Positions 32,528-62,010 are shown, counted from the stretch's first letter. The stretch is 64,000 nucleotides of DNA from Patescibacteria group bacterium (GCA_024239055.1 JANBVJ010000003.1:504-64503); one strand, 5' to 3'. Made by a program: numbers and translations. Notes: generated by a model not told the origin, from the sequence alone.

Positions 32528-33769
32528 ATGCTAGAAAATAACAGGCGCACAGAAAAACGTGCGCATCAAAAGAAGGGCGCAAAAGAAAGCCAAACAAAAG
32601 CGGTAACGTTAATGGAAAAATATGTCGAAACACCAAAAACTGCACAACCACCAAAACTATACCTCAAAGGTCTGAAAAAATGTCATGCCTTTATGACGTA
32701 TTATACAAGCAAACAACTCTATGAACTACACAAGAAAAAGAAACTAAAAATTCCACCAATCCAAAGACCAGAAGGACAATGGAAAAAGGATCAGGATCAA
32801 GCATTGATAAAATCAATGTTGAAGGGGTTTCCAATTATGCCAATGCTATTTCAATTAGCAGATGGAATACTTTGGGTACTTGATGGACAACAACGACTAT
32901 ACAGCGAGAGATTATTCAGAGAAAACAAACTGAAAATTTCTAAATCCATATCAGAAGAGTTGGAAGGAATGAAGTGGAATGAACTAACACCAGAAACTCA
33001 AAGGTCATACAACAACATGCCAATTCCTGCCTTCGTTATTCAAGGAAAAAATGGAGATGCAACATTGACGAAGAAGTTGGGTGTAGAAGCATACATCTTA
33101 GAACACAGTGGTTTACCATTGGTAGCACCACAAATCCGTAGAGCAAAATTCAACGACTCTGCATTTCACAAGTTGGTAATGAAGGTCAGAAACCAAATGC
33201 TCCAATTCTATGTGTCTAACGGAATTGTCTCAAAAACAAGTATGCTGAGATCTAGAGAAGAAGAAATAATCGCAGAAAACATTCTTCTTGTTACATCAGG
33301 AGTTTCTGATGGTAGAGACATCGATAAGAAATACACTGAACGAAAAACTACTGCAAAGTTGAATAGTTATCTTGATGGAAAAGATCCAATAAGATTACTA
33401 CAAGGATATTTTGGTACAATCAACAGTATGTTTAATGAATTTGACAAAAAAGGCAAATGCATTGGTGGTGGCTTGAAAGGAACTGGATTTGATAATCCAA
33501 ACAACTTCTATGGATTACTTGGTGCAGTAAAGAAAGCACTTGATGAAGGTATAATGCCTAGTAATCATAAAGACGTAGTACAAATAGGAAACAAGATGAA
33601 GAAACTCGTACTTGAAGTTAAAACAACCTTACAAGACATAAGGGACAACCCTTCGAAAGTACCTCCTCAAGTATTGAAGTATCATACGACAATAAGTAGA
33701 GGAACAAGAGATCTACAAAATAGAGAAGATAGAATCAACATTCTATTTGATATAATCAAACGGAACTAG
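32528..33769 (+). CDS. DUF262 (GmrSD N-terminal, ParB-superfamily) domain protein
   Basis: IPPIQRPEGQWKKDQDQALIKSMLKGFPIMPMLF...VLDGQQRL is the DUF262 hallmark (QR...DGQQR). TATA-like TTTTTATA sits about 27 nt before the ATG. Confidence 0.75.
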   Translation: MLENNRRTEKRAHQKKGAKESQTKAVTLMEKYVETPKTAQPPKLYLKGLKKCHAFMTYYTSKQLYELHKKKKLKIPPIQRPEGQWKKDQDQALIKSMLKGFPIMPMLFQLADGILWVLDGQQRLYSERLFRENKLKISKSISEELEGMKWNELTPETQRSYNNMPIPAFVIQGKNGDATLTKKLGVEAYILEHSGLPLVAPQIRRAKFNDSAFHKLVMKVRNQMLQFYVSNGIVSKTSMLRSREEEIIAENILLVTSGVSDGRDIDKKYTERKTTAKLNSYLDGKDPIRLLQGYFGTINSMFNEFDKKGKCIGGGLKGTGFDNPNNFYGLLGAVKKALDEGIMPSNHKDVVQIGNKMKKLVLEVKTTLQDIRDNPSKVPPQVLKYHTTISRGTRDLQNREDRINILFDIIKRN

Positions 33770-35418: not shown

Positions 35419-36429
35419 ATGGAATACAGGGGACTAGGCATAATCTTTATGGCAATAATGTTATTTGCACTCTCCCCTGTGGGGTTAGCATTCGGGCAAG
35501 ATTCAGTTGTTGTTCTTGAAAAAGAACCTGTATCCGAATATTCTGTCGAGGAAGTAATCGAACAGTACGGTATAAGAATTCTCTACGAACCAACGTTAGA
35601 AACTTTCACCGCACTAGGAACTGGTCTTGCTCAAAGTGCAACTCTTATCGCTGGATTCTTAATTACAATTTTCATTGGATGGTTAGCAGGAAGATTTGCA
35701 AGTGGTGTACTCAGACGAATTATTAAAAAATGGTTTGAACATGAAAAACTTCTCAAAGCAATTGGAATGAATAAAGAAGAATTTGCAGAATCAAGTTGGA
35801 GACAAGTACACAACTTAATTCCATTTACAGTAAAGTGGTTTATCTGGTTAGCATTCTTTATTGTTGCAATTGATCTGTTACAAATTCCACAAGCAACTGG
35901 TGCGCTTACAGAACTATGGGCTTGGATACCAAGAATAGTTGTTTTCATAATTCTAGTTTCTGTTGGATTCATCATTGCAAGAATTGCATTAAAGTGGATG
36001 AGTGATACAAAACCAGAATTATTTGGTAAGGAAGGAACAGTACAACTTGCAAAGGGACTTGTGCAAGGAATAATATTCGCAATAATTTTCGGCATAGGAA
36101 TAACAACATTAGGCGTTGGAGAGGATATAATTCCAATTCTGTTTTGGGTTATCTTAGCAGGATTCATGGGTATGGCAATTGCAATTGCAGTTGGATTAAG
36201 ACATACTGCAAGATACTGGAGTGCAGGAGAAGCAATCAAACGAGACATTGAGGGAGGCGAGATTGAAATTGGAACACACAAAGGAACTGTTGTTAAAGTT
36301 GGAATCACACATACAAAACTTAAAGAACAAAATAAAACTGTATTATTACCAAACGAATCATTCGAAGCAAATGCAATTACAATAACTAAAGATCCACCAG
36401 ATAAAGAAGAGAAGAAAAAAAATGCCTAA
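35419..36429 (+). CDS. MscS-family mechanosensitive channel-like protein
   Basis: Signal-like N-terminus and multiple TM helices. C-terminal GGEIEIGTHKGTVVKVGITHTKLKEQNKTVLLPNESFEANAITI matches the MscS beta-domain pattern (GxV..I..R.T.L...D...v.iPN). Confidence 0.65.
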   Translation: MEYRGLGIIFMAIMLFALSPVGLAFGQDSVVVLEKEPVSEYSVEEVIEQYGIRILYEPTLETFTALGTGLAQSATLIAGFLITIFIGWLAGRFASGVLRRIIKKWFEHEKLLKAIGMNKEEFAESSWRQVHNLIPFTVKWFIWLAFFIVAIDLLQIPQATGALTELWAWIPRIVVFIILVSVGFIIARIALKWMSDTKPELFGKEGTVQLAKGLVQGIIFAIIFGIGITTLGVGEDIIPILFWVILAGFMGMAIAIAVGLRHTARYWSAGEAIKRDIEGGEIEIGTHKGTVVKVGITHTKLKEQNKTVLLPNESFEANAITITKDPPDKEEKKKNA

Positions 36430-37020: not shown

Positions 37021-37112
37021 AATTTCAAATCACTACGTAGTATATTTGAATTGTTCGTTTATGTGAACAAACAATAAAACATATACTACTACTACTACTA
37101 ATTTACTTAATG
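37021..37112 (+). promoter_or_regulatory. Promoter/operator cassette A
   Basis: AATTTCAAAT-ca-CTACGTAG-ta-TATTTGAATT; TTGTTC-N8-GAACAA (37051-37070); ACATATA box (37079-37085); (ACT)x5 (37085-37099); ATG 37110, about 28 nt from the box centre. Confidence 0.65.
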
Positions 37113-37268
37113 GTAGCAAACAAAAATCGAGTTAGCAACTCACAAAAATCGGAAGAGAAAAAATTTAGTATGAATGAAACTGAATTATTAGAATCTAGTA
37201 GATTAAGAAAAATATTTTCTGAGCAAAATTTAGAATCAACCAAACTAGGAAAGAGGTTTTACGTTTGA
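37110..37268 (+). CDS. first-gene small protein of cassette A (52 aa)
   Basis: MVANKNRVSNSQKSEEKK...; N-terminus and its DNA are near-identical to those of 40140; TTGA junction to the next gene. Confidence 0.45.
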   Translation: MVANKNRVSNSQKSEEKKFSMNETELLESSRLRKIFSEQNLESTKLGKRFYV

Positions 37269-38759: not shown

Positions 38760-39217
38760 GTTTTAAAAAGATTGTACCATGCACAGAAGAGATCAAACAA
38801 AAAGCAATTCACTTTGATAACATGATAAACGAAAAACCTTTGCGACTCTATACAATCAGACCAAATAATTTATTTGGATTAAAAGGAGGGTTAGTATTTA
38901 CTGGAAATTCATTAGATAAGGCAGTTGAAAAAGTAATTGATAACGCATTGCCTTTAGCATTCTTTAAAGTTGACGATCAAGAAGAGAGAATAAAAATTTT
39001 AAGAAAAATAAAAAATGTTGCTAAAGCATTAACCCTTGATAATGTTATAATTGGATTAAACGGAAAAAAGAGATCTGAGGCATGGATTGAAACTGCTTAT
39101 GATGTTGAAAAAGGAGATACATTAAGGTATGACGATCTAGATTTTGATAATAAATTAAATGAATGCTATTTCTATTGTCTAGAAAAAAACGAAGAAAAAT
39201 GGGTGAATGAAGATTGA
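38756..39217 (+). CDS. hypothetical protein
   Basis: 153 aa; TTGA overlap. Confidence 0.55.
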   Translation: MSFKKIVPCTEEIKQKAIHFDNMINEKPLRLYTIRPNNLFGLKGGLVFTGNSLDKAVEKVIDNALPLAFFKVDDQEERIKILRKIKNVAKALTLDNVIIGLNGKKRSEAWIETAYDVEKGDTLRYDDLDFDNKLNECYFYCLEKNEEKWVNED

Positions 39218-39402
39218 TCGTTAAATGTATGAATACTTCATGTAATAAGATCATTGATGTAAGAGAAAAAGAAATTCATCTCAAAGTTTTTCATCCTAAC
39301 TACATTAGTTTAGTTAGAACAACAAAAAATTATCCAGATCTAAATAGATTCATGACTCCAAAACAAATTATCCAAAGTGTTTTTGAGGTAGTAACAAACT
39401 GA
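39214..39402 (+). CDS. small Cys2-His2-like protein
   Basis: TTGA overlap; KCMNTSCNKIIDVREKEIHLKVFHP. Confidence 0.5.
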   Translation: MIVKCMNTSCNKIIDVREKEIHLKVFHPNYISLVRTTKNYPDLNRFMTPKQIIQSVFEVVTN

Positions 39403-39641
39403 CTTTATCAACAAGTACAATACAAAAAGCAAAAACTCTAGTTAAGAAGGGATTTGTTAAGGTAGATCAAGATTCAGACTTTGTATTTTATGTTAGATCG
39501 AGTAGTGGTGGACATTACAAAGTAGAATACTTAAAAAATAATAACAAGTTTGATCTTTATTGTGAGTGTGACGGATGGAAATATAATCAAGATTGTTCAC
39601 ACTGTCATGCAGTTAGGATATTCAAAGGAGGCAAAAAATAG
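39399..39641 (+). CDS. SWIM zinc-finger protein with no canonical start codon
   Basis: Hand translation: (L)TLSTSTIQKAKTLVKKGFVKVDQDSDFVFYVRSSSGGHYKVEYLKNNNKFDLYCECDGWKYNQDCSHCHAVRIFKGGKK*. CxC-x9-CxH = SWIM. The open frame begins at 39387 with no ATG/GTG/TTG; CTG at 39399 forms a CTGA junction. Confidence 0.55.
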   Translation: MTLSTSTIQKAKTLVKKGFVKVDQDSDFVFYVRSSSGGHYKVEYLKNNNKFDLYCECDGWKYNQDCSHCHAVRIFKGGKK

Positions 39642-39771: not shown

Positions 39772-39843
39772 AAAAAACTCAAAAAAAGTAAAAAAATCTA
39801 AAAAAAGTTAAAAAAACCAAAAAAACCAAAAAAACCAAAAAAA
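39772..39843. repeat. Eight phased A-tracts (A6-A7 every 9-10 bp)
   Basis: A-runs start at 39772, 39781, 39790, 39800, 39810, 39819, 39828 and 39837, including (AAAAAAACC)x3. Confidence 0.85.
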
Positions 39844-40051: not shown

Positions 40052-40142
40052 AATTCAAAAACCCTACGTATAGGAATTGAATTGTTGTTCAAATTGAACA
40101 AACAATGCTTAATAACTACCACTACTACCAATTATGTTAATG
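40052..40142 (+). promoter_or_regulatory. Promoter/operator cassette B
   Basis: AATTCAAAAacc-CTACGTAT-aggAATTGAATT; perfect 17 bp palindrome TTGTTCAAATTGAACAA (40085-40101); TTAATAA (40109-40115); ACTACC/ACTAC repeats; ATG 40140. Confidence 0.65.
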
Positions 40143-40484
40143 GTAGACAAACAAAATCGAGTTAGCAACTCACAACAAATCTTTCAAACGAAAGAAGATC
40201 GAACAGAGTCAATAACTTTGTTAAAGAATGCAACAAATATTGTTGAAAAACCTTTTTCAGAGCAATTAGACTTGGTTGAATCTCTTAGCATTCTAAACGA
40301 TGAAGAGAGAAAAATAGTTGATCTTAGTGCATGTTGGTTTATCCAGTATGATAATAACACATACTTGGTACAATCAAACAAACTAAAAGATCAGTTAATT
40401 CCTAAAGGATCAACTGCAATTCGATCAAATCAAAGTGGACAACTACTTAGAATCTCAGCAGTTTCAGGAGGTTCAGGACTGTAG
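40140..40484 (+). CDS. first-gene protein of cassette B
   Basis: Start set at ATG 40140: MVDKQNRVSNSQQIF... (paralogous N-terminus to 37110). Confidence 0.55.
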   Translation: MVDKQNRVSNSQQIFQTKEDRTESITLLKNATNIVEKPFSEQLDLVESLSILNDEERKIVDLSACWFIQYDNNTYLVQSNKLKDQLIPKGSTAIRSNQSGQLLRISAVSGGSGL

Positions 40485-40700
40485 ATGTCTCTACCAACTT
40501 TTTTTACTAATCAAATCTATTATTGTATAGAAAATCACGATAACGAAAATCCTTTGAATGAAGGTAAACACAATTTTATTTATGTAGAGAATTTTGGCTT
40601 ATCATGTGAATTTTGTTTTTTACCAACTGAAAAAGCAAATTATAAACCAATGAAAAGAAAATCTAACAATAAATTTTATTTTGTTGAGGTAGAAAATTAA
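40485..40700 (+). CDS. hypothetical protein
   Basis: 71 aa; ATG directly after the upstream stop. Confidence 0.5.
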   Translation: MSLPTFFTNQIYYCIENHDNENPLNEGKHNFIYVENFGLSCEFCFLPTEKANYKPMKRKSNNKFYFVEVEN

Positions 40701-43085
40701 ATGACTGTAGAAAAATATACTCCAACTATTAGGAAGGAAAAAGTTTTAGATATTCAAGGTACAAACTACGAATCTAAATTAGATTCAATTATGAATAAAG
40801 AGGGATTTATCAAAACAAGATTGAATGAAGAGGTAATTATTCAAGCGGTATCTCACAAATTGTATAAAGATCCAGAGTCAGGATTAAGAGAACTATACAA
40901 TAATGAGGCTTATCATGGTTGTTTAGTAGCAAAAACAAAACACAATGAAAAAAACGCATACATCAAAGTCTCATTAAACACAACAACTAGAAAATTAATC
41001 ATTCAAGGTTTTAACTCATTAGGAATTACGGAAGAGGTTTTTACAGAAATTTTAACTGAATTAGGTACATCAGGTAATAAAGACAGAACTAAAACTGGTA
41101 AATTCGGTATGGGTTTTGCATCATACACAAAGTTATCAGACATTATGATTTTAGAGACTGAATGTATTAATGGAGATTGTTATGCAGTATTGGCTAAAGG
41201 AGGATTAGGATTTCAAAAACTTCCTAAACCAAAATTAGAAAAGACTGGTACACGATTAACTTTAACACTACGAAAAGATGTTAACTTTGAAAAATTAGTT
41301 AGCATGTTATCTAATCTTGGAATGACATCTGGAATTACAACTTACTTTGAATTAGAATCTCCAAAATCAATTAATGAATTCAAATCTGGAATATACACAC
41401 TTGAACAATTTAGTTACAAACAAATTTTTGACAATATGAATAATGCAAGTTCAGATCATTATTCCTATTTAAAATCAAGTCTAGTAAATGACCAAGTTGA
41501 AGTTCATTTAAGTTTAGCAGTTGATAGTAACGGTTCATTAAAAAATGACAGAAATAAGAAATTTTATCTTTGTAATAGTCCTATTCAAGTTCTATTAGAT
41601 GAAGATTCAACAAGTGACAGAGCATACAATCTTGATGAGGATGAAGATTCAGACGAATACAAATTAGCAGAACAAGAAAGAGATAATTATAAAACAACTA
41701 GAATTGATGAAATTGAATTTGCAAATTTAGTTGTTAACATGAAGGATGAGGATCTTTTTGAACCTATGCAAGATCGAGAAAGAACAACTAAAGATGCGGA
41801 AAAAAGATTAAGAAAAATTATAGTTGATTTGTATAATGAGACTTTGAAAAAAATAAAACCATGTGAGAGTTTAGATTCATGGTTCAATCATGAACACAAA
41901 TATTTTATTTCATCTAGTGAGGCAGATATAGTTTCAATTCTAGATGACAAGTCAAAAACAATTCAAAAATTCCTTAACACTAAAGTTATGGAATATGATC
42001 TCGATGGTAGAATAAAATATGATACTAAAGAATTAAAAGACATTATTGAAAATTCTGAAAATTACTTTTACGTAAACAAAAAAGATAAGAGAGTAACAAC
42101 TCTACTTGAAGAAAACTTTGAAGATTTCTTTTTAGTTATGGTACATCCAGATAAGGAACCATATTTTGAAAACAAAACTCTATACAATGACACAATTAAG
42201 ACTTTGAAATATTTCAAATTCAATGAGGCAAAACAGTATTGTAAAGATCATGACTTTAAGGCAAAAAGAGTTCTTGGAGAAAAAGAAGATCGAACAAGTG
42301 AGGATATAGTTCTGCATTATTCTGATACAAATAATTCTTATTCTGGTTATGGACATTCAGACACATACGGAGAATACACAAAAACGGTTAGATTAGGATC
42401 AGATGACTTTGAAGATCATAAAAGTCTAATTATTCAAGTTGCTCCATTCTCTTGTTACAGAGATGTTTTAAAACAATTCAAAACTGATTATTATCTTGCA
42501 AGTGAAAAAAAGAATATAGATGCACAAACTTTAATTGAACTTCAAAAAAATCTAAAAGAAAAATTTGCAAAATGGGAGTCTAATCATGAATTTGTAACAC
42601 TTGAAAAAATTCTAAAGTACAAACAAGTTACATTAAACTTTGAGTGTTTTGAAAATAGCCATGAAGATTCAACTAAAGGATTAAGTGAAATTCCAAAAAA
42701 TAAATTGTATATTGTTGGAGGATCTAAAAGTCTGTTTGAGTTAGCATTAATTCTAATTTATAATGGTGTTGACTACGAAATAACCAATGAGTCTTTAGAT
42801 GGATATTACAAACCTAAAGTAAAGGCTTTAGAAAAAACTCTAAACTTAATTGGTGAGGATCTTTATGAAGGAAAATTTGACGATATATTTCTGTATGAAA
42901 AGTATCTACTAAAGGTTAGATCATTTGAAATTAAAGTTCAAGATCCAATTCTTAGGAAATTATTCAAGTTAAGTCATGATGAAAAGAATCTAAAAGAAAT
43001 TTCAAACGACATTATAACTCTAAACGAAAAATACAAAATTGAAAAACCAGTCCTTAACAGAAAAGAATCGGAGTATATATCATAG
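40701..43085 (+). CDS. GHKL (Hsp90/MORC-like) ATPase-domain protein
   Basis: 794 aa. LRELYNNEAYHG (N-box-like), KLIIQGFNSLGITEEVFTEILTELGTSGNKD (compare Hsp90 LxIxDxGIGMTxxEL..NLGTIAxSGT), GKFGMGFASYTKLSD (compare GQFGVGFYS). Confidence 0.6.
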   Translation: MTVEKYTPTIRKEKVLDIQGTNYESKLDSIMNKEGFIKTRLNEEVIIQAVSHKLYKDPESGLRELYNNEAYHGCLVAKTKHNEKNAYIKVSLNTTTRKLIIQGFNSLGITEEVFTEILTELGTSGNKDRTKTGKFGMGFASYTKLSDIMILETECINGDCYAVLAKGGLGFQKLPKPKLEKTGTRLTLTLRKDVNFEKLVSMLSNLGMTSGITTYFELESPKSINEFKSGIYTLEQFSYKQIFDNMNNASSDHYSYLKSSLVNDQVEVHLSLAVDSNGSLKNDRNKKFYLCNSPIQVLLDEDSTSDRAYNLDEDEDSDEYKLAEQERDNYKTTRIDEIEFANLVVNMKDEDLFEPMQDRERTTKDAEKRLRKIIVDLYNETLKKIKPCESLDSWFNHEHKYFISSSEADIVSILDDKSKTIQKFLNTKVMEYDLDGRIKYDTKELKDIIENSENYFYVNKKDKRVTTLLEENFEDFFLVMVHPDKEPYFENKTLYNDTIKTLKYFKFNEAKQYCKDHDFKAKRVLGEKEDRTSEDIVLHYSDTNNSYSGYGHSDTYGEYTKTVRLGSDDFEDHKSLIIQVAPFSCYRDVLKQFKTDYYLASEKKNIDAQTLIELQKNLKEKFAKWESNHEFVTLEKILKYKQVTLNFECFENSHEDSTKGLSEIPKNKLYIVGGSKSLFELALILIYNGVDYEITNESLDGYYKPKVKALEKTLNLIGEDLYEGKFDDIFLYEKYLLKVRSFEIKVQDPILRKLFKLSHDEKNLKEISNDIITLNEKYKIEKPVLNRKESEYIS

Positions 43086-43094
43086 GTTATTATC

Positions 43095-43760
43095 ATGTTA
43101 CTTGAAGATAGAGAAGATCAAATTATTGTTCTTGATTTAAACGGTAAGGTAGATACTTTTCCTAAAACTGATTACTTTATTCTAAAGTTCAAGGATTTTG
43201 ATGGTGACAGAATTTTTTATCAATTCGATAAAGACTCATACGTTCAAGAGACTTACAATGATGGGATCTTTAACTGCATTTACAAAAAAGAAAGAATGCA
43301 GATAAGACAGGCAAATAAAATTGCATTTAGTATTAATTGGCATAAAAATAATAAAAATCCAGTATTAGGATTAAAACCATTTGAAGAGTTATTCAAGAAA
43401 AACTTTGCACACAACATTCAGTTAGATGTTTTAAAATCAATTCTAAAACCATTTGAACATAGACTAAAGTTTGTTGACGATGGAATAGAGATTGATGAAA
43501 GATTTTTTGTAAACAAAAATGCTCAGGCGCATTTTAAAAATCAAGGAATCTATGAACCACTTTGTATTGTTGCTAAAGGTTATTTAGAAAATTTTGATGT
43601 CGATTCAAAAATAGGTGAAATTGAGATTAATGCAAAGTCATTAGAAATTGTTGCTAAAGTAATGTTTTTGATAAAACCAAACATGAAGGATAGTGTTTTT
43701 ACAGATCAGATTGAAAAAGGAAATCCAGAATTGTTTGAAGAGTTAAAGAGGGATTTTTAA
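43095..43760 (+). CDS. hypothetical protein
   Basis: 221 aa; same operon as the GHKL gene. Confidence 0.6.
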   Translation: MLLEDREDQIIVLDLNGKVDTFPKTDYFILKFKDFDGDRIFYQFDKDSYVQETYNDGIFNCIYKKERMQIRQANKIAFSINWHKNNKNPVLGLKPFEELFKKNFAHNIQLDVLKSILKPFEHRLKFVDDGIEIDERFFVNKNAQAHFKNQGIYEPLCIVAKGYLENFDVDSKIGEIEINAKSLEIVAKVMFLIKPNMKDSVFTDQIEKGNPELFEELKRDF

Positions 43761-44200
43761 TGAAAACTAAATTCAAAAATTATCATAATGTAAAAACAAT
43801 AGAACAAGCAATAAATCATAATGATATACAAACTAGAAAAATCAATAAAGATGAATCAAAAATTAAAATTAAATATCAAAAAATTGAAAATCTAAAAAAC
43901 GTAATTAAAAAAATTGAAAATGAAATTACAGATTTAGAACATCACCCAAATTTAAGAGAAAGTTATGTACTTGATGAAAATAATCATTATGGATATAATC
44001 AAGTTTTAGAATTATCCAAAGTTGAAAAAGTTGCTATTTGTACCGATCGAAGTGGCAGTATTCATTATGCAATGACAATTTTTAAATTAAATGGTAAATG
44101 GTTCAAAGTTGAAACTCGAATCATTGATCCTAATGATCACAATTCAAAATACACGAACAAGTTACTACAATTAACTAATGAGGAGTTGTATTGGTCATGA
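43760..44200 (+). CDS. hypothetical protein (coiled-coil N-terminus)
   Basis: 146 aa; TAATG overlap. Confidence 0.55.
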   Translation: MKTKFKNYHNVKTIEQAINHNDIQTRKINKDESKIKIKYQKIENLKNVIKKIENEITDLEHHPNLRESYVLDENNHYGYNQVLELSKVEKVAICTDRSGSIHYAMTIFKLNGKWFKVETRIIDPNDHNSKYTNKLLQLTNEELYWS

Positions 44201-44490
44201 AGGCAATACTCGAAGGGAATCAAATTTCACTTAGTTTTTTTCATAAAGTTAGTTTCCATAAGCATGTAAAATATAGTACAAAGTACAAAAATTTAGATAA
44301 AAATCCTCATTGGGATTCAGAAAATTTCTATATCAATCCATTTTATTATAACGGAAAATTACACTTAATTATTACTCCAAAATTCTTAATGAGTGCTAAA
44401 TCAAAATTTTATTTCATAAAGAAAAACCATTTCAGAGCAGTATCTAGTCATGGCATAACAGACTTTGAGATTTTGGAGGATTTATCTTGA
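44191..44490 (+). CDS. hypothetical protein
   Basis: 99 aa; TTG 44191 or ATG 44197. Confidence 0.5.
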   Translation: MVMKAILEGNQISLSFFHKVSFHKHVKYSTKYKNLDKNPHWDSENFYINPFYYNGKLHLIITPKFLMSAKSKFYFIKKNHFRAVSSHGITDFEILEDLS

Positions 44491-44520: not shown

Positions 44521-44580
44521 GTTTGTTCACTTTGAACACACAACTCTTTAATACTACAACTACTACTACTACTACTAATG
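44521..44580 (+). promoter_or_regulatory. Promoter/operator cassette C
   Basis: TTGTTC-acttt-GAACA (44523-44538); CTTTAATA box (44546-44553); (ACT)x6 (44559-44576); ATG 44578. Confidence 0.6.
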
Positions 44581-52513: not shown

Positions 52514-52582
52514 TTTGTTCATAAGTTATAGAGAAAACAATATAAGATATACTACTACTACCAAAGGTGTAGAATTACTATG
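52511..52582 (+). promoter_or_regulatory. Promoter cassette D (degenerate)
   Basis: GTTTGTTC half-site, TATAAGATAT box, (ACT)x3, AGGTG SD-like, ATG 52580. Confidence 0.45.
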
Positions 52583-52800: not shown

Positions 52801-52975
52801 TAAACCGCTACGTAGCATAATTGAAATTCAATCAGGCATCAAAACAGGAAAAAACTAAAGTCGATTTTTGTCGTTACCTGCACCTGCTGGATAACGCTGA
52901 GTCACGAACAGAAGGTGTTCAGCAAAAAGCACATACAATACTTTATAACTACTACTATAACTACTACTACCAATG
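52801..52975 (+). promoter_or_regulatory. Promoter/operator cassette E
   Basis: CTACGTAG (52808-52815) + TTGAAATTC; GAACA-gaagg-TGTTC (52906-52920); CTTTATAA box (52941-52948); ACT repeats; ATG 52973, about 28 nt from the box centre. Confidence 0.6.
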
Positions 52976-55196: not shown

Positions 55197-55345
55197 ATTT
55201 AGAAATAAGAATCAGTTTATCAGAAAAGGAACAAAAGAAAGTATTCAGTTTCTTGAGAGGACTTGATGCAGAATTTATGGTTTATAATGCAGTAGGAGAT
55301 CGAATTTACTCTACTTATGAGGGAGATAAAATTGATCATAGGTAG
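55193..55345 (+). CDS. hypothetical small protein (50 aa)
   Basis: TTGA overlap. Confidence 0.35.
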   Translation: MNLEIRISLSEKEQKKVFSFLRGLDAEFMVYNAVGDRIYSTYEGDKIDHR

Positions 55346-56420
55346 AGACATTACAAAGGAAGATCAGAGTGTTAGAGAAGGATACTTAAAGAAAGTAGAC
55401 TTTGAATTAGATGTTCCAACATTCTTGAAAACCCATTCATTCCTACAATCAATAACAGGACATGGAAAAACAAATCTAATCTTAAATATTGTAGACGGTT
55501 TAATTCAAGAAAGACCAGACATTCAATTAGTATTCCTAGATGATCAAGAAGAGTTTACATTCATTCCAAGAAAATACAAGAACGTAATTCTAATTTCAAA
55601 GGACAGAACTCCGAATATATTTACAACAAAACATGCATTTGAGTTAGGAAAACAATCAAGAAAGAACGGACAGTCATTAGTTCTCAAACTTTCAGACTTT
55701 GCAAAAAGTGAAGATAAAGAATTGTTTGTAGCGAATTTTCTTGACGGATTCAAGTCAGAAGGAAAGAAGATTGGTACACCATGTTTATTGATAATTGATG
55801 AGGCAGATCTATTTGTTCCAACAAGATCAAAACGAAAGAACGTTGTTTCAAGGGATCCTATTATTTGGTATTGTAAGAGGGCTAGAAAATTAAATATTTC
55901 AGTCTTACTTGCAACACAATACTCATCGGCAGTTGATATTGATGCAAGAAGAGAGATGGAAAATTACTTCATTGGTAAAACAAAACAAAGAACAGATAGA
56001 AATGCAGTTTGTGAGATGTTAGGAGATAATTCAATCTTTGACAACTTAGGATGGGGATTAAAGAAAGGTCAGTTCTATGTTAGAGGAGATGCATTATCAA
56101 AGGATCTGACATTATTACTAACTAAAGAAACTAAAATAGAAAAAAGACTTGCAGGAGTTGACGAAGAGAAATCTTATTCAGACTTGTCAAAGATCTATGA
56201 AGAATCTATCACAGGACATCAAAATCTATCTCTAATTGAAATGTTACAAAAGAAAATTAACGACTTGGAAAAAGAATTGACTGTAACAAAGTCAAAGGAA
56301 TTGACAGACGAAATACGTAAACACTTGATTGACATGGGATTCAATGATGGACTAAGGAAAGCAAAGGAACAGTACGAGACAGACAAAGGAAAGTTCACTA
56401 GATTTGTGGAGAAGTTGTAA
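55317..56420 (+). CDS. HerA/FtsK/VirB4-type P-loop ATPase
   Basis: Walker A SITGHGKTN; Walker B CLLIIDEADLFVP; LLATQYSS. The true start may be TTG 55332 (GAGGGA upstream). Confidence 0.65.
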   Translation: MREIKLIIGRDITKEDQSVREGYLKKVDFELDVPTFLKTHSFLQSITGHGKTNLILNIVDGLIQERPDIQLVFLDDQEEFTFIPRKYKNVILISKDRTPNIFTTKHAFELGKQSRKNGQSLVLKLSDFAKSEDKELFVANFLDGFKSEGKKIGTPCLLIIDEADLFVPTRSKRKNVVSRDPIIWYCKRARKLNISVLLATQYSSAVDIDARREMENYFIGKTKQRTDRNAVCEMLGDNSIFDNLGWGLKKGQFYVRGDALSKDLTLLLTKETKIEKRLAGVDEEKSYSDLSKIYEESITGHQNLSLIEMLQKKINDLEKELTVTKSKELTDEIRKHLIDMGFNDGLRKAKEQYETDKGKFTRFVEKL

Positions 56421-57919: not shown

Positions 57920-58201
57920 ATGTTAGAATGTGCATTTTGTGGCAATGCAAATGTAGAAAAGATTACAGACGAACATTACAACTGTTCTATCTGTGGATTT
58001 GGATGGAACGGTAAACAACCAGCAAATATGACTAAGCATTTACAGAGAATTATAAATTTAACAAAGTATTTGATAGTTCAAAACCCTACAAAGTCTAGAG
58101 ACGAGATAACAAATATTGTAATGGAAAAATTACATGCAATAGAAAATCATCCAGTAGATAAATTTGGATATTGCGAGTATTGCAATACGAGGTTCGAGTA
58201 A
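57920..58201 (+). CDS. zinc-ribbon protein
   Basis: CAFCGN...CSICG...CEYC. Confidence 0.5.
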   Translation: MLECAFCGNANVEKITDEHYNCSICGFGWNGKQPANMTKHLQRIINLTKYLIVQNPTKSRDEITNIVMEKLHAIENHPVDKFGYCEYCNTRFE

Positions 58202-58240
58202 AATGCTTAATAACTACCACTACTACCAATACTTAATGAT
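58202..58240 (+). promoter_or_regulatory. Promoter cassette F
   Basis: The 29 nt AATGCTTAATAACTACCACTACTACCAAT (58202-58230) is identical to 40104-40132. ATGATG at 58236 lies about 28 nt from the TTAATAA centre. Confidence 0.55.
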
Positions 58241-58287: not shown

Positions 58288-61200
58288 ATGGGTTGTGCTT
58301 GTCAAGATTGTTGGAGGGCGAAAAAATTGTCTAAAAAGAATGATAAAAATGAAATCAAAGTAAATGTAAGTAATGACTCACTGAGAAACGCCACAACCAA
58401 ACTAAGAGCAGGTCAAGGAAATAACTTTGGACAAGGAATTTCAGATAGGAGAAATGACAAGGTATCTGTAAATAGAGGAATGAAAGGCACAAAAAAATTC
58501 AGGATTTCTAAAGGAGAATTTATTGAAGATGGTTTTGGAGTTTGTGATGGATGTAACAAAAAATTTGAATCGTTAGTTAGAGTTGAAGGAAATAAAAATG
58601 ACACAGTTTGTTTTGATTGTTTTGGATCTAGATTTGGTGCTTTTGAATTAACTGATCTAATGAAAAAATTGTCACCTGATACATTAAAAAGATGGCAAGA
58701 TCCAATTATGCAAGTTCATGATTTTGTTGACTTTGATGAATTATCAGTTCCTCAATTGATTGAAGAAAGAGAAAGGATCAAGTTAGAATTAGATAAAGAT
58801 AGTTCAAGACTTTATGATAAAATTAGTAAAGAAGAATTAGATAAATTAAAACACATTGATCAAAAAAAGAAACAACAATATTTAGATCACGATTCTACCA
58901 TTGGTCAAGTCTACACTGATACACATGGACATCTTCAACACTTAATGAGAGAACGACCTTATTCAATTGCAATTGACAATGCACAAGAAGAGTTCAACGA
59001 ATATCTCGATACAATTACAGATGAAAACGGTTATCTCGATAGAGATGATGCACTTGCTTATGCAAAAAAGACACTAAATGCAATAGATAGATCAGACTTT
59101 GGTGTTGGTGAGGCAGAAGGCTTAGACCAATTCACTGATAAAATTGAACAAACAATTTTCAATGACAAAGGAACAAGAAAAAGATTCTGTCCTAGATGTG
59201 AAAAGAACGAATTAAAATATCCATTACCTCTTAACGCAAAATCCAGATATGACAAAGATACTTGGGTTTGTTCTGAATGTGGAAACGATGAGGCACTAGA
59301 AGGATATGATAAGGCATTAAAAATGAATAAAAAAACATTTCAGATATTTCTTGATGATGTTCTTCCAAAAGATATTCCACATGAGAATATTGATTTAATT
59401 ACAGATTGGTTAATGGTTCAATACCTAAGTAAAAAACCAGATCCTACATTTATGAAATACTTTAAAGAATGTGGAGGAAACTTAGACCAATTCAATAAAT
59501 TAACAGAAGAATTACAAAAAGGTGATGAAGAATACGTTAATGCGTTCAGAAAAGCAATATTTAATGAAAATATTAAAGCACTAACAGCAGTTGGAATTGA
59601 ACCAATATCAGATGGTAATGTTGTTTATGAAAAAATAGTTGATGAGAGACATATACCAAAATCAGGAATAAAACAATACGATTCAAGAATTAAAAAAGAA
59701 AAGAAACTTGATCCAAAATACATTTCATTCGAAGAGGCAAGAGTATGGGCATTAGATCAAAAATGTCATAGCAGACAAGACTGGATCAACATAACAAAGA
59801 CGGATGACTTTCCAGAAAACATTCCAATTCATCCAGAAACAAAGTATTCAGAGTTTCAAGAACTTGGAGGATTTCCAAATTTCTGTGGTTACACACAAAA
59901 AGTAAGACGAGCATCATTAACAAAAGAAAGAGTAAAAGAGATTCTCAAAGAATTTGAAAGAAGGTGGGAGTTTTACGCAGAATATTCAACTGGAATGGTA
60001 ACAAACTGGTTTGACACTCAAGGTTTGTTCAGTGTAAAAGATCCGTATGTACAAACATTACTTACAAAATTAACTTCTTGGCAGTTAGATCCAGACAGCA
60101 TTGAGGCATTGCGTTACTGGTGTAGAACTGGTGACTTTGAGAAAAAAATTGGAAAGTATTCACTTCAATCAAAAACAGAAGAAACTACAATAGATTACCT
60201 AGACAGACAACCAACACAGGTTTCAGAAATGTCAATCACAGGACTCTTAGAAGATTCTGTAACAATAGGAGTTGAAAGGATAATGATTAATGCAAGAATG
60301 GTTGTACCAGATGAAACTGACAAGGCTTGGTATGATCAACAAGTAGTTTTTTGTGTCAGAAATATTATGCTTAGATTCTGTGATCCAGATAGAGAAGAGG
60401 TAGAATACAAGAGTCTTAAAGCAGAACCCATGAACGGAAACAAATTTCATGATGAGATTCTCAAGACAGCATTAAAGGAATATGAATATGTTAAAAATAT
60501 CAATTACGATAAACAATTTTATACATTCCCTCATCCTCCAACATTTTTACAAAAATATCATGCATACAAAACTAGAGAAAAGAATTCATTTTTCAATATG
60601 AGTGGTACAGGTCAAAAGAAAACAGGCGCATCAGTAATTGGCGCAATTGCTAACAAATGTACACACATCCTAGTCGTTGTTCCAAACAATATAGTTCCTC
60701 AATGGGTTACTAATATTCGAAGATTCTACAGTAATGCATTTGTTTTCTCTGGAAAGGATCTTCACAATAACTATTTTATTAACAGTGGTAAACACATTCC
60801 AAAGTTCCATGTAATTAATTATGACAAGTTTGGAAGGAGTGACTTAGCAAAGAGATTCATTGATCAAATTGGTAGTAACAAAATTGACATGGTTATTTTC
60901 GATGAAGGTCAGTTAGTAAAGACAAGAGATGGAGATCCAAACTTTTATTCAAACAGAAGAAAGAACATAGAAACTCTTGTTGATCATCTTAGAAATGTAA
61001 ACAGAAAACTAAAGGTAAACATACTCTCTGCAACTCCTGTAATTAATAACATTAGAGAAGGTAAATCATTATTAGAATTATTAACTGGAACAAAATACGG
61101 ATTCTCAACTAGAAATACTTTAAGAAATGCAAACAAATTACACACTGAATTTATTCCATTTTCAGTTGTGTATTCCAAAAGACCAGATCTAAAAGAAGTT

Positions 61201-62010
61201 GGTAGAGATAAACCAATTTCAGTTGATGCTTTCTTACCAGAACATCTTACTGACGAAGAGATCATGAAATTAAACTGGAATGAACTTGAACAAATTGCTA
61301 CACGTTACAGAATTCCAAAGATACTTGAAATTTTAAGCAAGAGTGAAGGCAAGACAGTTATCTATACAGACTATGTAACTGGAATTGTAAGTCAATTAAG
61401 AAAAGCATGTATTGATGCTGGTTATCGAGTAGGGGAATTTACAGGTGATGACAAATCAGGAATGATTGAAAAGACTGGATTTCAAGACCAAGAAGGCAAT
61501 AACGAAGTTGTAAACAAATTTGTTCATGGAGACATTGACGTTTTAATTGCATCAAGACCATTCCAACTTGGAATTGACGAGGTTCAGTTTGCTTGTCCAA
61601 ATTTAATTTTTAATGGTTTGGTATGGACTTATGCAGAGTTTGAACAAATTATTGGAAGAGTTTCAAGAGAAGGTTCACACTTTGATCAAGTAAATATCCA
61701 TGTAATTATGGCAAACATCAACGGTTATGAATATGACAGAAACATAAAGTACAATAGAATTCTAAAGAAAAGAGCAATAGGTGACTGTGTAAGATACGGT
61801 ACACTACCAGATGAACTTGATATTCCAGATACAAAAGGAGAAAGACTTAGAGCATTAAAGGCAATGATTTCAAACAAAGAATCAGGATTTCCAGAAAAAG
61901 AACTCATTGAACAACGTCATCAACTTGAGGCAGATCAAGAGATTGAAGTAAAAATTGATGAATTGAATGAAAAGTTCTCAGAGATTGAAGGAGAGAAGAA
62001 ACTTGGTTAA
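58288..62010 (+). CDS. SNF2-like superfamily-2 helicase with N-terminal zinc ribbons
   Basis: 1240 aa. SGTGQKKTGAS (I), LVVVPNNIVPQW (Ia), MVIFDEGQLVK (II), ILSATPVINNIREGKSLLELL (III), QIIGRVSREG (VI). N-terminal CxxC pairs. Confidence 0.8.
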   Translation: MGCACQDCWRAKKLSKKNDKNEIKVNVSNDSLRNATTKLRAGQGNNFGQGISDRRNDKVSVNRGMKGTKKFRISKGEFIEDGFGVCDGCNKKFESLVRVEGNKNDTVCFDCFGSRFGAFELTDLMKKLSPDTLKRWQDPIMQVHDFVDFDELSVPQLIEERERIKLELDKDSSRLYDKISKEELDKLKHIDQKKKQQYLDHDSTIGQVYTDTHGHLQHLMRERPYSIAIDNAQEEFNEYLDTITDENGYLDRDDALAYAKKTLNAIDRSDFGVGEAEGLDQFTDKIEQTIFNDKGTRKRFCPRCEKNELKYPLPLNAKSRYDKDTWVCSECGNDEALEGYDKALKMNKKTFQIFLDDVLPKDIPHENIDLITDWLMVQYLSKKPDPTFMKYFKECGGNLDQFNKLTEELQKGDEEYVNAFRKAIFNENIKALTAVGIEPISDGNVVYEKIVDERHIPKSGIKQYDSRIKKEKKLDPKYISFEEARVWALDQKCHSRQDWINITKTDDFPENIPIHPETKYSEFQELGGFPNFCGYTQKVRRASLTKERVKEILKEFERRWEFYAEYSTGMVTNWFDTQGLFSVKDPYVQTLLTKLTSWQLDPDSIEALRYWCRTGDFEKKIGKYSLQSKTEETTIDYLDRQPTQVSEMSITGLLEDSVTIGVERIMINARMVVPDETDKAWYDQQVVFCVRNIMLRFCDPDREEVEYKSLKAEPMNGNKFHDEILKTALKEYEYVKNINYDKQFYTFPHPPTFLQKYHAYKTREKNSFFNMSGTGQKKTGASVIGAIANKCTHILVVVPNNIVPQWVTNIRRFYSNAFVFSGKDLHNNYFINSGKHIPKFHVINYDKFGRSDLAKRFIDQIGSNKIDMVIFDEGQLVKTRDGDPNFYSNRRKNIETLVDHLRNVNRKLKVNILSATPVINNIREGKSLLELLTGTKYGFSTRNTLRNANKLHTEFIPFSVVYSKRPDLKEVGRDKPISVDAFLPEHLTDEEIMKLNWNELEQIATRYRIPKILEILSKSEGKTVIYTDYVTGIVSQLRKACIDAGYRVGEFTGDDKSGMIEKTGFQDQEGNNEVVNKFVHGDIDVLIASRPFQLGIDEVQFACPNLIFNGLVWTYAEFEQIIGRVSREGSHFDQVNIHVIMANINGYEYDRNIKYNRILKKRAIGDCVRYGTLPDELDIPDTKGERLRALKAMISNKESGFPEKELIEQRHQLEADQEIEVKIDELNEKFSEIEGEKKLG

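Follow-up and report, generated by a model that had tools for sequence, protein, structure and literature searches.

The 64,000-nucleotide sequence recorded as Patescibacteria group bacterium (GCA_024239055.1 JANBVJ010000003.1:504-64503), hereafter called the window, meaning the whole stretch of DNA analysed, contains six co-directional open reading frames (ORFs) on its + strand (g1 to g6; 40134/40140..44490) that are contiguous, overlapping or at most 9 nt apart. The third one, g3, encodes a protein of 794 amino acids (aa) that an initial annotation made from the DNA sequence described as a GHKL/Hsp90-like ATPase with an atypical G1 box, raising the questions of which kind of ATPase it is, whether it has kept ATP binding and what the genes around it contribute. 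The computational analysis described here has revealed that g3 has a Bergerat (GHKL) ATPase domain, and there is very little doubt that it is an Hsp90-like ATPase with a conserved partner, the product of the following gene g4. Both genes and the elements of the g3 ATPase domain are the following:

40701..43085, + strand: g3, Hsp90-like GHKL ATPase of 794 aa
43095..43760, + strand: g4, conserved partner of the ATPase, 221 aa
40818..41345, + strand: N-terminal Bergerat-fold ATPase domain of g3, residues ~40-215
nt 40890-40904, + strand: motif I of g3, with E64 and N68
nt 40998-41030, + strand: G1 box of g3, IIQGFNSLGIT, residues 100-110
residues 125-136 of g3: ATP lid, short and of low model confidence
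nt 41097-41114, + strand: G2 box of g3, GKFGMG
G183-T184 of g3: motif IV

The strings on which the initial annotation was based, ELYNNEAYHG, IIQGFNSLGITEEVF..LTELGTSGNKD and GKFGMGFAS, are present in g3, and they are genuine GHKL motifs according to profile searches, hhalign and conservation. With g3 alone, the Pfam family HATPase_c_3 was matched below threshold (E=0.01) and single-sequence searches of the PDB (phmmer), phages (tblastn) and PHROGs were empty; family profiles alone worked. At least 78 homologues of 750-870 aa were found, those with a name in their sources being called only 'hypothetical protein', and a representative search at 50% identity gave 1354 cluster representatives with E<=1e-3, including 295 with E<=1e-30 that were mostly full-length matches. 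An alignment of 43 family members (A1) was used as profile and for the AlphaFold2 model. This profile recovered from the PDB the N-terminal domains of Hsp90, HtpG, TRAP1 and GRP94 (best E=2e-10, residues 52-196), with 60 Hsp90-family proteins among the 60 matches listed, and hhalign of the g3 family against Escherichia coli HtpG reached a probability of 97.3% (E=2e-11). Residues E64 and N68 in motif I, G108 in G1, G133, G136 and G138 in G2 and G183-T184 in motif IV are invariant in A1. Motif I aligns to the ELISN of Hsp90, and E64 and N68 occur in 220 of 220 aligned members; in the wider set G133, G136, G138 and G183 are invariant and T184 is present in about 90%.

The AlphaFold2 model of g3 (mean pLDDT 84.6) was compared with the PDB by using Foldseek, and the top 48 matches were Hsp90-alpha/beta, GRP94, Hsc82, TRAP1 and HtpG, with E values of about 5e-17, probability 1.00 and 520-800 aligned columns that extend into the Hsp90 middle and C-terminal domains. 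GyrB appeared first at rank 49 (E=6.5e-14), and neither MORC nor TopoVI-B was found among the best 50 matches listed. The choice between TopoVI-B, MORC and HtpG that the initial annotation had left to structure prediction is consequently answered as HtpG/Hsp90; profile and structure searches both recovered an Hsp90-type fold, and the outcome in which no GHKL fold is recovered did not occur. The best NCBIfam model for g3 is also NF010683, 'HSP90 family protein' (E=1.7e-6), and in the relative P0044 the match to this model spans residues 54-394 and reaches model position 347, well into the middle domain.

These rankings bear on the proposal that the locus encodes a DNA-manipulating machine, in which g3 would be a DNA-acting GHKL subunit of the TopoVI-B/Topo VIII, MutL or MORC type and g4 its DNA-handling partner. 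GyrB, MutL, MORC and TopoVI-B are GHKL ATPases with a transducer-like second domain, phage topoisomerases are present in the Foldseek list of viral models, the relative P0026 shows a weak NCBIfam match to TopoVI-B (E=1.3e-4) and the most distant relatives, in locus L030, adjoin an MmeI-type methyltransferase gene. However, GyrB ranks behind the 48 Hsp90-family structures, all 60 profile matches listed belong to that family, Pfam detected no DNA-binding, Toprim, S5 or MutL_C domain among the 43 members of A1, a Foldseek search of the PDB with the g4 model recovered no Toprim, Spo11, winged-helix or nuclease fold (best E=0.56), and no PADLOC system was matched. This explanation is considered very improbable, and the DNA-manipulating machine is not supported: the searches found neither a partner of the Toprim/Spo11/MutL type nor any domain for DNA binding or nuclease activity. 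The specific identities TopoVI-B, MORC and MutL were rejected for g3 because of the Foldseek ranking and because partner domains are missing. The suggestion of a known conflict system fared no better, PADLOC giving only noise (TmtA, E=0.002, 13.9 bits; SduA, E=0.003, 14.6 bits).

Several results weigh against a close relationship with Hsp90. The curated models for Hsp90 membership are PF00183, the NCBIfam HtpG model PRK05218 and the HSP90 family model PRK14083. NF010683 gives 26.8 bits for g3 compared to a cut-off of 455, and Pfam HSP90 (PF00183) matches 0 of 43 members. The strict N-terminal signature, Y-x-[NQHD]-[KHR]-[DE]-[IVA]-F-[LM]-R-[ED], is found in 0 of 43 members and matches the E. 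coli HtpG control; from this signature Y55, L62, R63 and E64 are conserved in the g3 family as a Y...LRE skeleton. In addition, the middle and C-terminal regions of g3, including the C-terminal 230 residues, have no significant similarity to E. coli HtpG (hmmsearch), and the global TM-scores of the model to Hsp90 are low (0.32-0.42). Because Hsp90 is the best fold match but g3 falls outside the curated definitions of the family, g3 is 'Hsp90-like' and very divergent, and not an HtpG orthologue. It shares with the cellular proteins (HtpG, Hsp90, GRP94, TRAP1; NF010683) the N-domain motifs I-IV, the Y...LRE skeleton, the overall predicted fold and, following the N-domain, a conserved Arg that is predicted to lie in a strand-loop-helix element. 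In contrast to them, the G1 box of the g3 family reads GxD/NSxG, one residue being inserted and the Asp either displaced or missing, the lid is shorter, g3 is about 170 aa longer than HtpG (794 versus 624 aa) with its C-terminal half unmatched, and its obligate genomic partner resembles none of the solved structures, known co-chaperones included.

Concerning ATP binding, the atypical G1 box without the canonical Asp has been confirmed by the family alignment. In the QGFNSLG of g3 the two candidate positions are occupied by G103 and N105, neither of them Asp, and G108 is invariant. A canonical D-NGIG box is found in the relatives P0026 and P0028, the majority of members have G-x-D-S-x-G, in which one residue is inserted and the Asp stands two positions further on, and a minority has D103. 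The states of the box among 221 members were:

D105 only: 150 of 221 members
G103/N105, no Asp: 35 of 221 members
D103 only: 25 of 221 members
other: 11 of 221 members

The 32 full-length Asp-less members have a median pairwise identity of 24% and retain E64, N68, G108, G122, G133/136/138, G183, E350 and R359 in 100% of cases. Because the catalytic residues are fully conserved in this class, catalysis appears to be maintained and position 105 to tolerate either Asp or Asn. The doubt about ATP binding expressed in the initial annotation was legitimate, but it is tempered by this conservation: the ATPase activity of g3 is probably retained, as judged from the aligned sequences, with an affinity or specificity of nucleotide binding that would be altered, not lost. 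More speculatively, the Asp-to-Asn variant might represent a switch in nucleotide specificity.

The same residues have to be considered for a different explanation, according to which the class of g3 is a dead pseudo-ATPase that does not bind ATP and serves as scaffold or decoy, for instance by sequestering a host factor together with g4. In its favour, G103 and N105 stand at both positions where relatives carry Asp, the lid, which links G1 to G2, falls about 10 residues short of its Hsp90 length in the profile alignment and is of low confidence in the model, and the second ATPase paralogue present in loci L001 and L016 could allow a division of labour. However, complete retention of catalytic residues among Asp-less members of such low identity would be unexpected after a loss of catalysis, the alternation of Asp and Asn at position 105 indicates that both are tolerated, and P0019 (871 aa), the closest aligned relative of the L001 paralogue P0022 (871 aa, itself unaligned), is also Asp-less. 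A dead enzyme is thus regarded as improbable, and a retained ATPase activity is preferred.

An ATPase of the Hsp90 type would also need a contribution from the middle domain, for which g3 has the following candidate:

41748..41777, + strand: loop E350..R359 of g3 (DEDLFEPMQDR), preceded by strand 342-347 and followed by helix 364-382, candidate counterpart of the catalytic loop in Hsp90

Every aligned member of the g3 family has E350 and R359, and the motif aligns to HDE...P..DRDR in protein gp93 of the halovirus HSTV-2. The arrangement resembles the Hsp90 catalytic loop, in which a strand, an Arg-bearing loop and a long helix succeed one another, in HtpG ...LIDSSDLPLNVSRE..., with R336 as the Arg of E. 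coli HtpG. Direct HMM alignment of the g3 middle region to HtpG was marginal (E=0.047, single target), although it put the helices that follow in register. Judging from the HSTV-2 alignment and the predicted secondary structure, it is suggested that R359 could be the equivalent of HtpG R336. A match drawn by eye between VVNMKDEDL..DRER and HtpG LIDSSDLPLNVSRE lacked statistical support (hmmsearch not significant) and was retained as inference only.

The neighbour that accompanies g3 is g4. A g4 homologue was found by HMM search directly 3' of the primary ATPase gene, at distances of -40 to +622 nt, in 15 of 15 informative loci, defined as those with a primary family ATPase and downstream sequence (the window, L001-L008, L010, L014-L016, L029 and L031; L002 was counted from tblastn, and L010 and L014 are near-identical). 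This linkage holds even with ATPases only 25-33% identical to g3, including the canonical-G1 member P0026, and when the neighbouring proteins of the window were searched by tblastn in the related loci, g4 was the only one that travels with g3. The 24 g4 homologues (alignment A2) do not carry any informative name, and g4 has no Pfam, PHROG, NCBIfam or PADLOC family match. Its AlphaFold model, which is confident (pLDDT 86.6), starts with a part rich in beta strands, continues with helices and another sheet, and ends in C-terminal helices; beyond the Foldseek result given above, no structure in the PDB was matched by profile either.

Some family members depart from this arrangement. Two ATPase paralogues are present in L001 (4281-7389 and 10001-12616) and in L016 (10001-13110 and 17739-20303); in each locus one paralogue has a g4-type partner and the longer one (871 aa in L001, 854 aa in L016) is without it. 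The window holds only the partnered type, although another copy could be present beyond its 64 kb. Four tandem partner-less paralogues (812, 463, 837 and 825 aa) were observed at L030:3494-14170, in a 1.13 Mb ENA contig; these most distant relatives are followed by the MmeI-type methyltransferase/restriction gene, and the region looks like a defence island, unlike the viral contigs. At L005:5977-8859 the family ATPase is split into two overlapping ORFs, by a frameshift or as a pseudogene, with a weak g4-like ORF downstream, and this contig is binned as Gammaproteobacteria, at odds with the otherwise archaeal distribution, which could reflect mis-binning. One JGI member of the P0022 cluster is named 'uncharacterized protein YeaO (DUF488 family)', which looks like an annotation error because no DUF488 signal appeared in any search; apart from this mislabel, the members of the family that are named carry only 'hypothetical protein'.

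The distribution of the family points to viruses of archaea. Of 5 matches in species-representative genomes, 4 were located on Thaumarchaeota/Nitrososphaerota contigs of metagenome-assembled genomes (MAGs), and the g3 family is present on 8 IMG/VR viral contigs. Related contigs encode MCM and a RadA-like protein (L029), Ku and a DNA ligase (L016), Tet_JBP (L031), or an MscS-like and a Band_7 protein (L015). Inside the window, the genes that could be recognised elsewhere are the following:

32528-33769: gene for a GmrSD_N/DUF262 (ParB-like) protein
35419-36429: gene for an MscS-like mechanosensitive-channel protein
55317-56420: gene for a HerA/FtsK-type ATPase, possible packaging ATPase
58288-62010: gene for a SNF2-family helicase of 1240 aa

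No other recognisable genes were found in the window, in which 20 larger ORFs were searched, so it is almost entirely dark; no tRNAs were found, and no capsid gene was recognised among the ORFs searched. The window is likely a virus, apparently one of ammonia-oxidising archaea, an assignment based on related IMG/VR contigs and gene content and not on a capsid gene. The virus-like origin assumed in the initial annotation agrees with the relatives on IMG/VR viral contigs and on Nitrososphaerota MAG contigs with MCM and RadA-like genes.

Archaeal viruses also provided the best viral comparison. When the g3 model was searched with Foldseek against viral models (BFVD), the top matches were the 'Chaperone protein HTPG domain' of HSTV-2 (E=4e-20) and a protein of HGTV-1 (E=1e-19), followed by giant-virus Hsp83 and then by many phage RIIA proteins. 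An 'Hsp90 chaperone protein' has been listed for HSTV-2 and HGTV-1 (PMC8651126). In hhalign comparisons the g3 family matched HGTV-1 gp172 'HSP90 chaperone' (E=1e-15), HGTV-1 gp203 (E=7e-11) and HSTV-2 gp93 'HtpG domain' (E=1.8e-9, 308 columns including the E350/R359 loop), and the middle-domain motif ...DE...P..DRDR is common to the g3 family and gp93. These are likewise archaeal-virus genes, encoding proteins of about 530-930 aa, and near-identical copies of HSTV-2 gene 93 are present in HRTV-2/-7/-11 and HCTV-6/-15, of the family Hafunaviridae. The closest named relatives of g3 are the 'HSP90 chaperone' genes of haloarchaeal tailed viruses. Nevertheless, the halovirus proteins differ from g3 in keeping a canonical D-NGIG G1 box, in carrying large insertions and in an identity to g3 that is too low for BLAST; their hosts belong to another archaeal phylum, and the haloviruses are tailed, whereas among the window ORFs searched no capsid gene was recognised. 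A functional characterisation of the halovirus HSP90 genes was not found in the literature searched.

A partner gene could exist in these viruses as well. HSTV-2 gene 91 (229 aa), located two genes 3' of gene 93, gave a weak match to a broadened g4 profile (score 30.2, E=0.0013, probability 19-20%; the maximum in 30 shuffles was 19.8), and gp91 in turn matches HGTV-1 gp207 (E=2e-6). The alignments suggest a partner common to both archaeal virus groups. No similarity was detected between g4 and HGTV-1 gp171 (224 aa, directly after gp172) or gp201. A LAGLIDADG homing endonuclease gene was observed in HGTV-1 (gene 205, L033:5302-5928) between the 870 aa Hsp90-like gene (203/204) and gene 207; as gene 207 is the counterpart of HSTV-2 gene 91, gene 205 splits a group that is compact in HSTV-2.

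The RIIA proteins that follow in the list of viral models raise the possibility that g3-g4 is the archaeal-virus counterpart of rIIA-rIIB, acting against abortive infection/exclusion or in membrane/energetic protection and not as a general chaperone. Phage rIIA has been described as a GHKL ATPase N-terminus with a variable C-terminus and as part of a poorly understood counter-defence system (PMC7824862). Many RIIA proteins were matched by the g3 model over 840-930 aligned columns (E=1e-15 to 1e-13), which amounts to a full-length structural similarity; PHROG 'RIIA lysis inhibitor' (phrog_38678) was matched by 2 of 43 relatives (E=7.5e-4), and a profile of rIIA from 8 phages (L021-L028) aligned weakly to the g3 family (probability 80.7%, E=1.3e-5). 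The layout is similar too, since rIIB lies directly 3' of rIIA on the same strand in 8 of 8 phages examined, and in T4, and both systems pair a viral protein of about 700-800 aa, whose N-terminal GHKL domain is Hsp90-like, with a partner gene directly 3'. The rIIA N-domain is itself specifically Hsp90-like: the same profile matched E. coli HtpG with a probability of 96.8% (E=2.7e-10), and the best NCBIfam model for T4 rIIA (L018:12-2189) is 'HSP90 family protein', as for g3.

In contrast, the N-domain of g3 is far closer to HtpG (2e-11) and to the halovirus 'HSP90' (1e-15) than to rIIA (1e-5), the profile match is restricted to the N-domain with no sequence similarity in the C-terminal two thirds, g3 itself has no PHROG rIIA match, and hhalign of the g3 family and g4 against the single T4 rIIA and rIIB sequences gave nothing. 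The partner g4 has no similarity to a 9-member rIIB profile, even profile versus profile, nor to the PHROG RIIB families. Moreover, a hydrophobic/transmembrane-like segment is lacking in all six g1-g6 proteins, whereas the T4 record annotates the rII proteins as membrane integrity protectors; g3-g4 belongs to archaeal viruses and rII to bacterial ones; and since the molecular function of rIIA/rIIB is itself unresolved, this explanation predicts little. As the rIIA match is weak and limited to the N-domain, and g4 is unlike rIIB, the rII likeness consists in the architecture and in a distant common origin of the ATPase, and does not amount to membership. An rII-like role is judged unlikely, although it is the main alternative, and a counter-defence function is possible only through the distant relationship to phage rIIA. 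The literature searched on rIIA and Hsp90, and on Hsp90 and Nitrososphaeria viruses, contained no account of the g3 family or of the g3-g4 pairing, nor any experimental study of a family member.

We return to the preferred reading, in which g3-g4 is a two-gene module of archaeal viruses formed by an ATP-driven Hsp90-like clamp and a dedicated partner, and for which the chances are considered even. We infer the functions of g3 and g4 from fold, conservation and gene linkage. The g3 protein would work as an ATP-driven clamp as Hsp90 does, with Asn105 in place of the adenine-contacting Asp, nucleotide binding being kept at an altered affinity or specificity, and R359 of the middle domain would complete the active site when N and middle domains dock. 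The g4 protein could be a co-chaperone-like adaptor, a regulator or an obligate client, and together they might act on proteins of the virus or of the host, remodelling or folding them while Nitrososphaerota are infected; these hosts belong to a domain reported to lack HtpG (PMC1525184). That the job of g3 is a chaperone-type protein remodelling is a tentative proposal, held at slightly less than even chances, to which several observations are opposed: g4 resembles no known Hsp90 co-chaperone (Foldseek versus PDB), a function for g3 is deduced from its predicted fold alone, and phage rIIA is a structural neighbour of comparable rank among the viral models, so a non-chaperone role is quite possible. 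Besides, Hsp90 and GyrB are generally considered to lose ATP binding when the canonical G1 Asp is changed to Asn.

The remaining genes of the unit are the following:

40140..40484, + strand: g1, 114 aa (116 aa with the start at 40134), first gene of the unit, function unassigned
40485..40700, + strand: g2, 71 aa, function unassigned, sequence not conserved
43760..44200, + strand: g5, 146 aa, N-terminal half coiled-coil-like, no conservation beyond this genome
44191..44490, + strand: g6, 99 aa as listed, TTG start with the true start uncertain, function unassigned

For g1 no Pfam, PHROG, PADLOC or NCBIfam match was obtained, and homologues just 5' of the ATPase gene were detected by tblastn only in the close relatives L001, L015 and L016 (43-73% identity). 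The g2 protein had no tblastn match in any related locus, small ORFs of 53-58 aa being found at its position in L001 and L015; g5 gave only sub-threshold coiled-coil matches in Pfam and no tblastn match in related loci; and the sole relative of g6 is in L015 (37% identity, tblastn). The 'six-gene operon of unknowns' of the initial annotation was thus right as to layout, a single tightly packed unit, but the search for co-occurrence by tblastn and HMM found g3 and g4 together widely and not g1, g2, g5 or g6, and as wide co-occurrence is limited to these two genes, a six-gene functional unit is not supported.

The six genes are bracketed by two cassettes with the order palindrome TGTTCAnnTTGAACA, CTTAATA, (ACT)n and ATG, and six cassettes on the + strand of the window could be aligned:

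37060-37112, + strand: cassette
40086..40142, + strand: upstream cassette of the unit, with palindrome TGTTCAAATTGAACA at 40086-40100, TATA-like CTTAATA at 40108-40114, (ACT)n at 40115-40128 and ATGs at 40134 and 40140
44524..44580, + strand: next cassette, with palindrome TGTTCACTTTGAACA, TTTAATA, (ACT)n and ATG at 44578, which ends the unit and starts the next
~52520-52565, + strand: cassette
~52930-52975, + strand: cassette
~58190-58240, + strand: cassette

They have a common core ACAAT-CTTAATA-(ACT)n-TAATGG immediately 5' of ORF starts, and the (ACT)n pattern has 22 matches compared to 1.8 expected, a number reached in 0 of 100 shuffles. The alignment of cassettes indicates 40140 as the conserved ATG of g1, the same start as in the initial annotation. 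A TATA-like box about 30 nt 5' of the conserved ATG suggests an archaeal promoter and a leaderless mRNA, and the cassettes are probably archaeal promoters with leaderless mRNA starts, as far as sequence can indicate. The perfect palindrome TGTTCAnnTTGAACA is exact only at 40086 and 44524, and because it is confined to the two cassettes bracketing g1-g6 it may be an operator for a shared regulator. The genes starting at 37110-37150 and 40140-40180 have near-identical first peptides, MVANKNRVSNSQ and MVDKQNRVSNSQ, the latter being the N-terminal peptide of g1, so the repeated cassette extends about 12 codons into otherwise unrelated proteins.

Upstream, a tandem array of about 8 AAAAAACCA units (39772-39843, also scored with period 19) is located in a non-coding stretch of about 490 nt 5' of the promoter cassette of the unit. 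An 85-codon stop-free frame with a SWIM-type zinc-finger motif, YCECDGWKYNQDCSHCH, is present at 39387-39641; it has no ATG/GTG/TTG start and overlaps in another frame the 3' end of the ORF 39214-39402, and it could belong to a frameshift-joined product, use a non-standard start or be what is left of a decayed gene. The base composition of the window is AT-rich (27-37% GC), with nearly all long ORFs on the + strand and a positive GC skew throughout.

What is new here is a group of Hsp90-like GHKL proteins of viruses in which the G1 box is altered and the lid shortened, and whose obligate partner had not been described. If the preferred reading is true, the family would be a natural experiment in the drift of the Hsp90 ATP site, in which the Asp has moved or been replaced and the lid has become shorter. 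It is a speculative and rather unlikely possibility that g3-g4, the halovirus 'HSP90' with its downstream partner and rIIA-rIIB all descend from a single ancient Hsp90-like machine of two components, specific to viruses and present in those of Bacteria and Archaea; in that case the archaeal versions would offer a tractable route to the function of the rII locus, because they have kept clearer Hsp90 features (the catalytic Glu/Asn, the middle-domain Arg and, in haloviruses, the canonical G1). The bridge from Hsp90 through halovirus 'HSP90' to rIIA provides a concrete hypothesis for rII, which is among the oldest unsolved phage loci, and as relatives are present in the cultivable HSTV-2 and HGTV-1 these ideas are open to experiment. 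Ammonia-oxidising archaea are major players in the nitrogen cycle. Although Hsp90 has been reported absent from Archaea (PMC1525184), a large Hsp90-like family, of at least 295 clusters at 50% identity, is found in the viruses of ammonia-oxidising archaea, and if these viruses do bring an Hsp90-type machine with a partner of its own, this would be a new case in which a virus provides a proteostasis function missing from its host.

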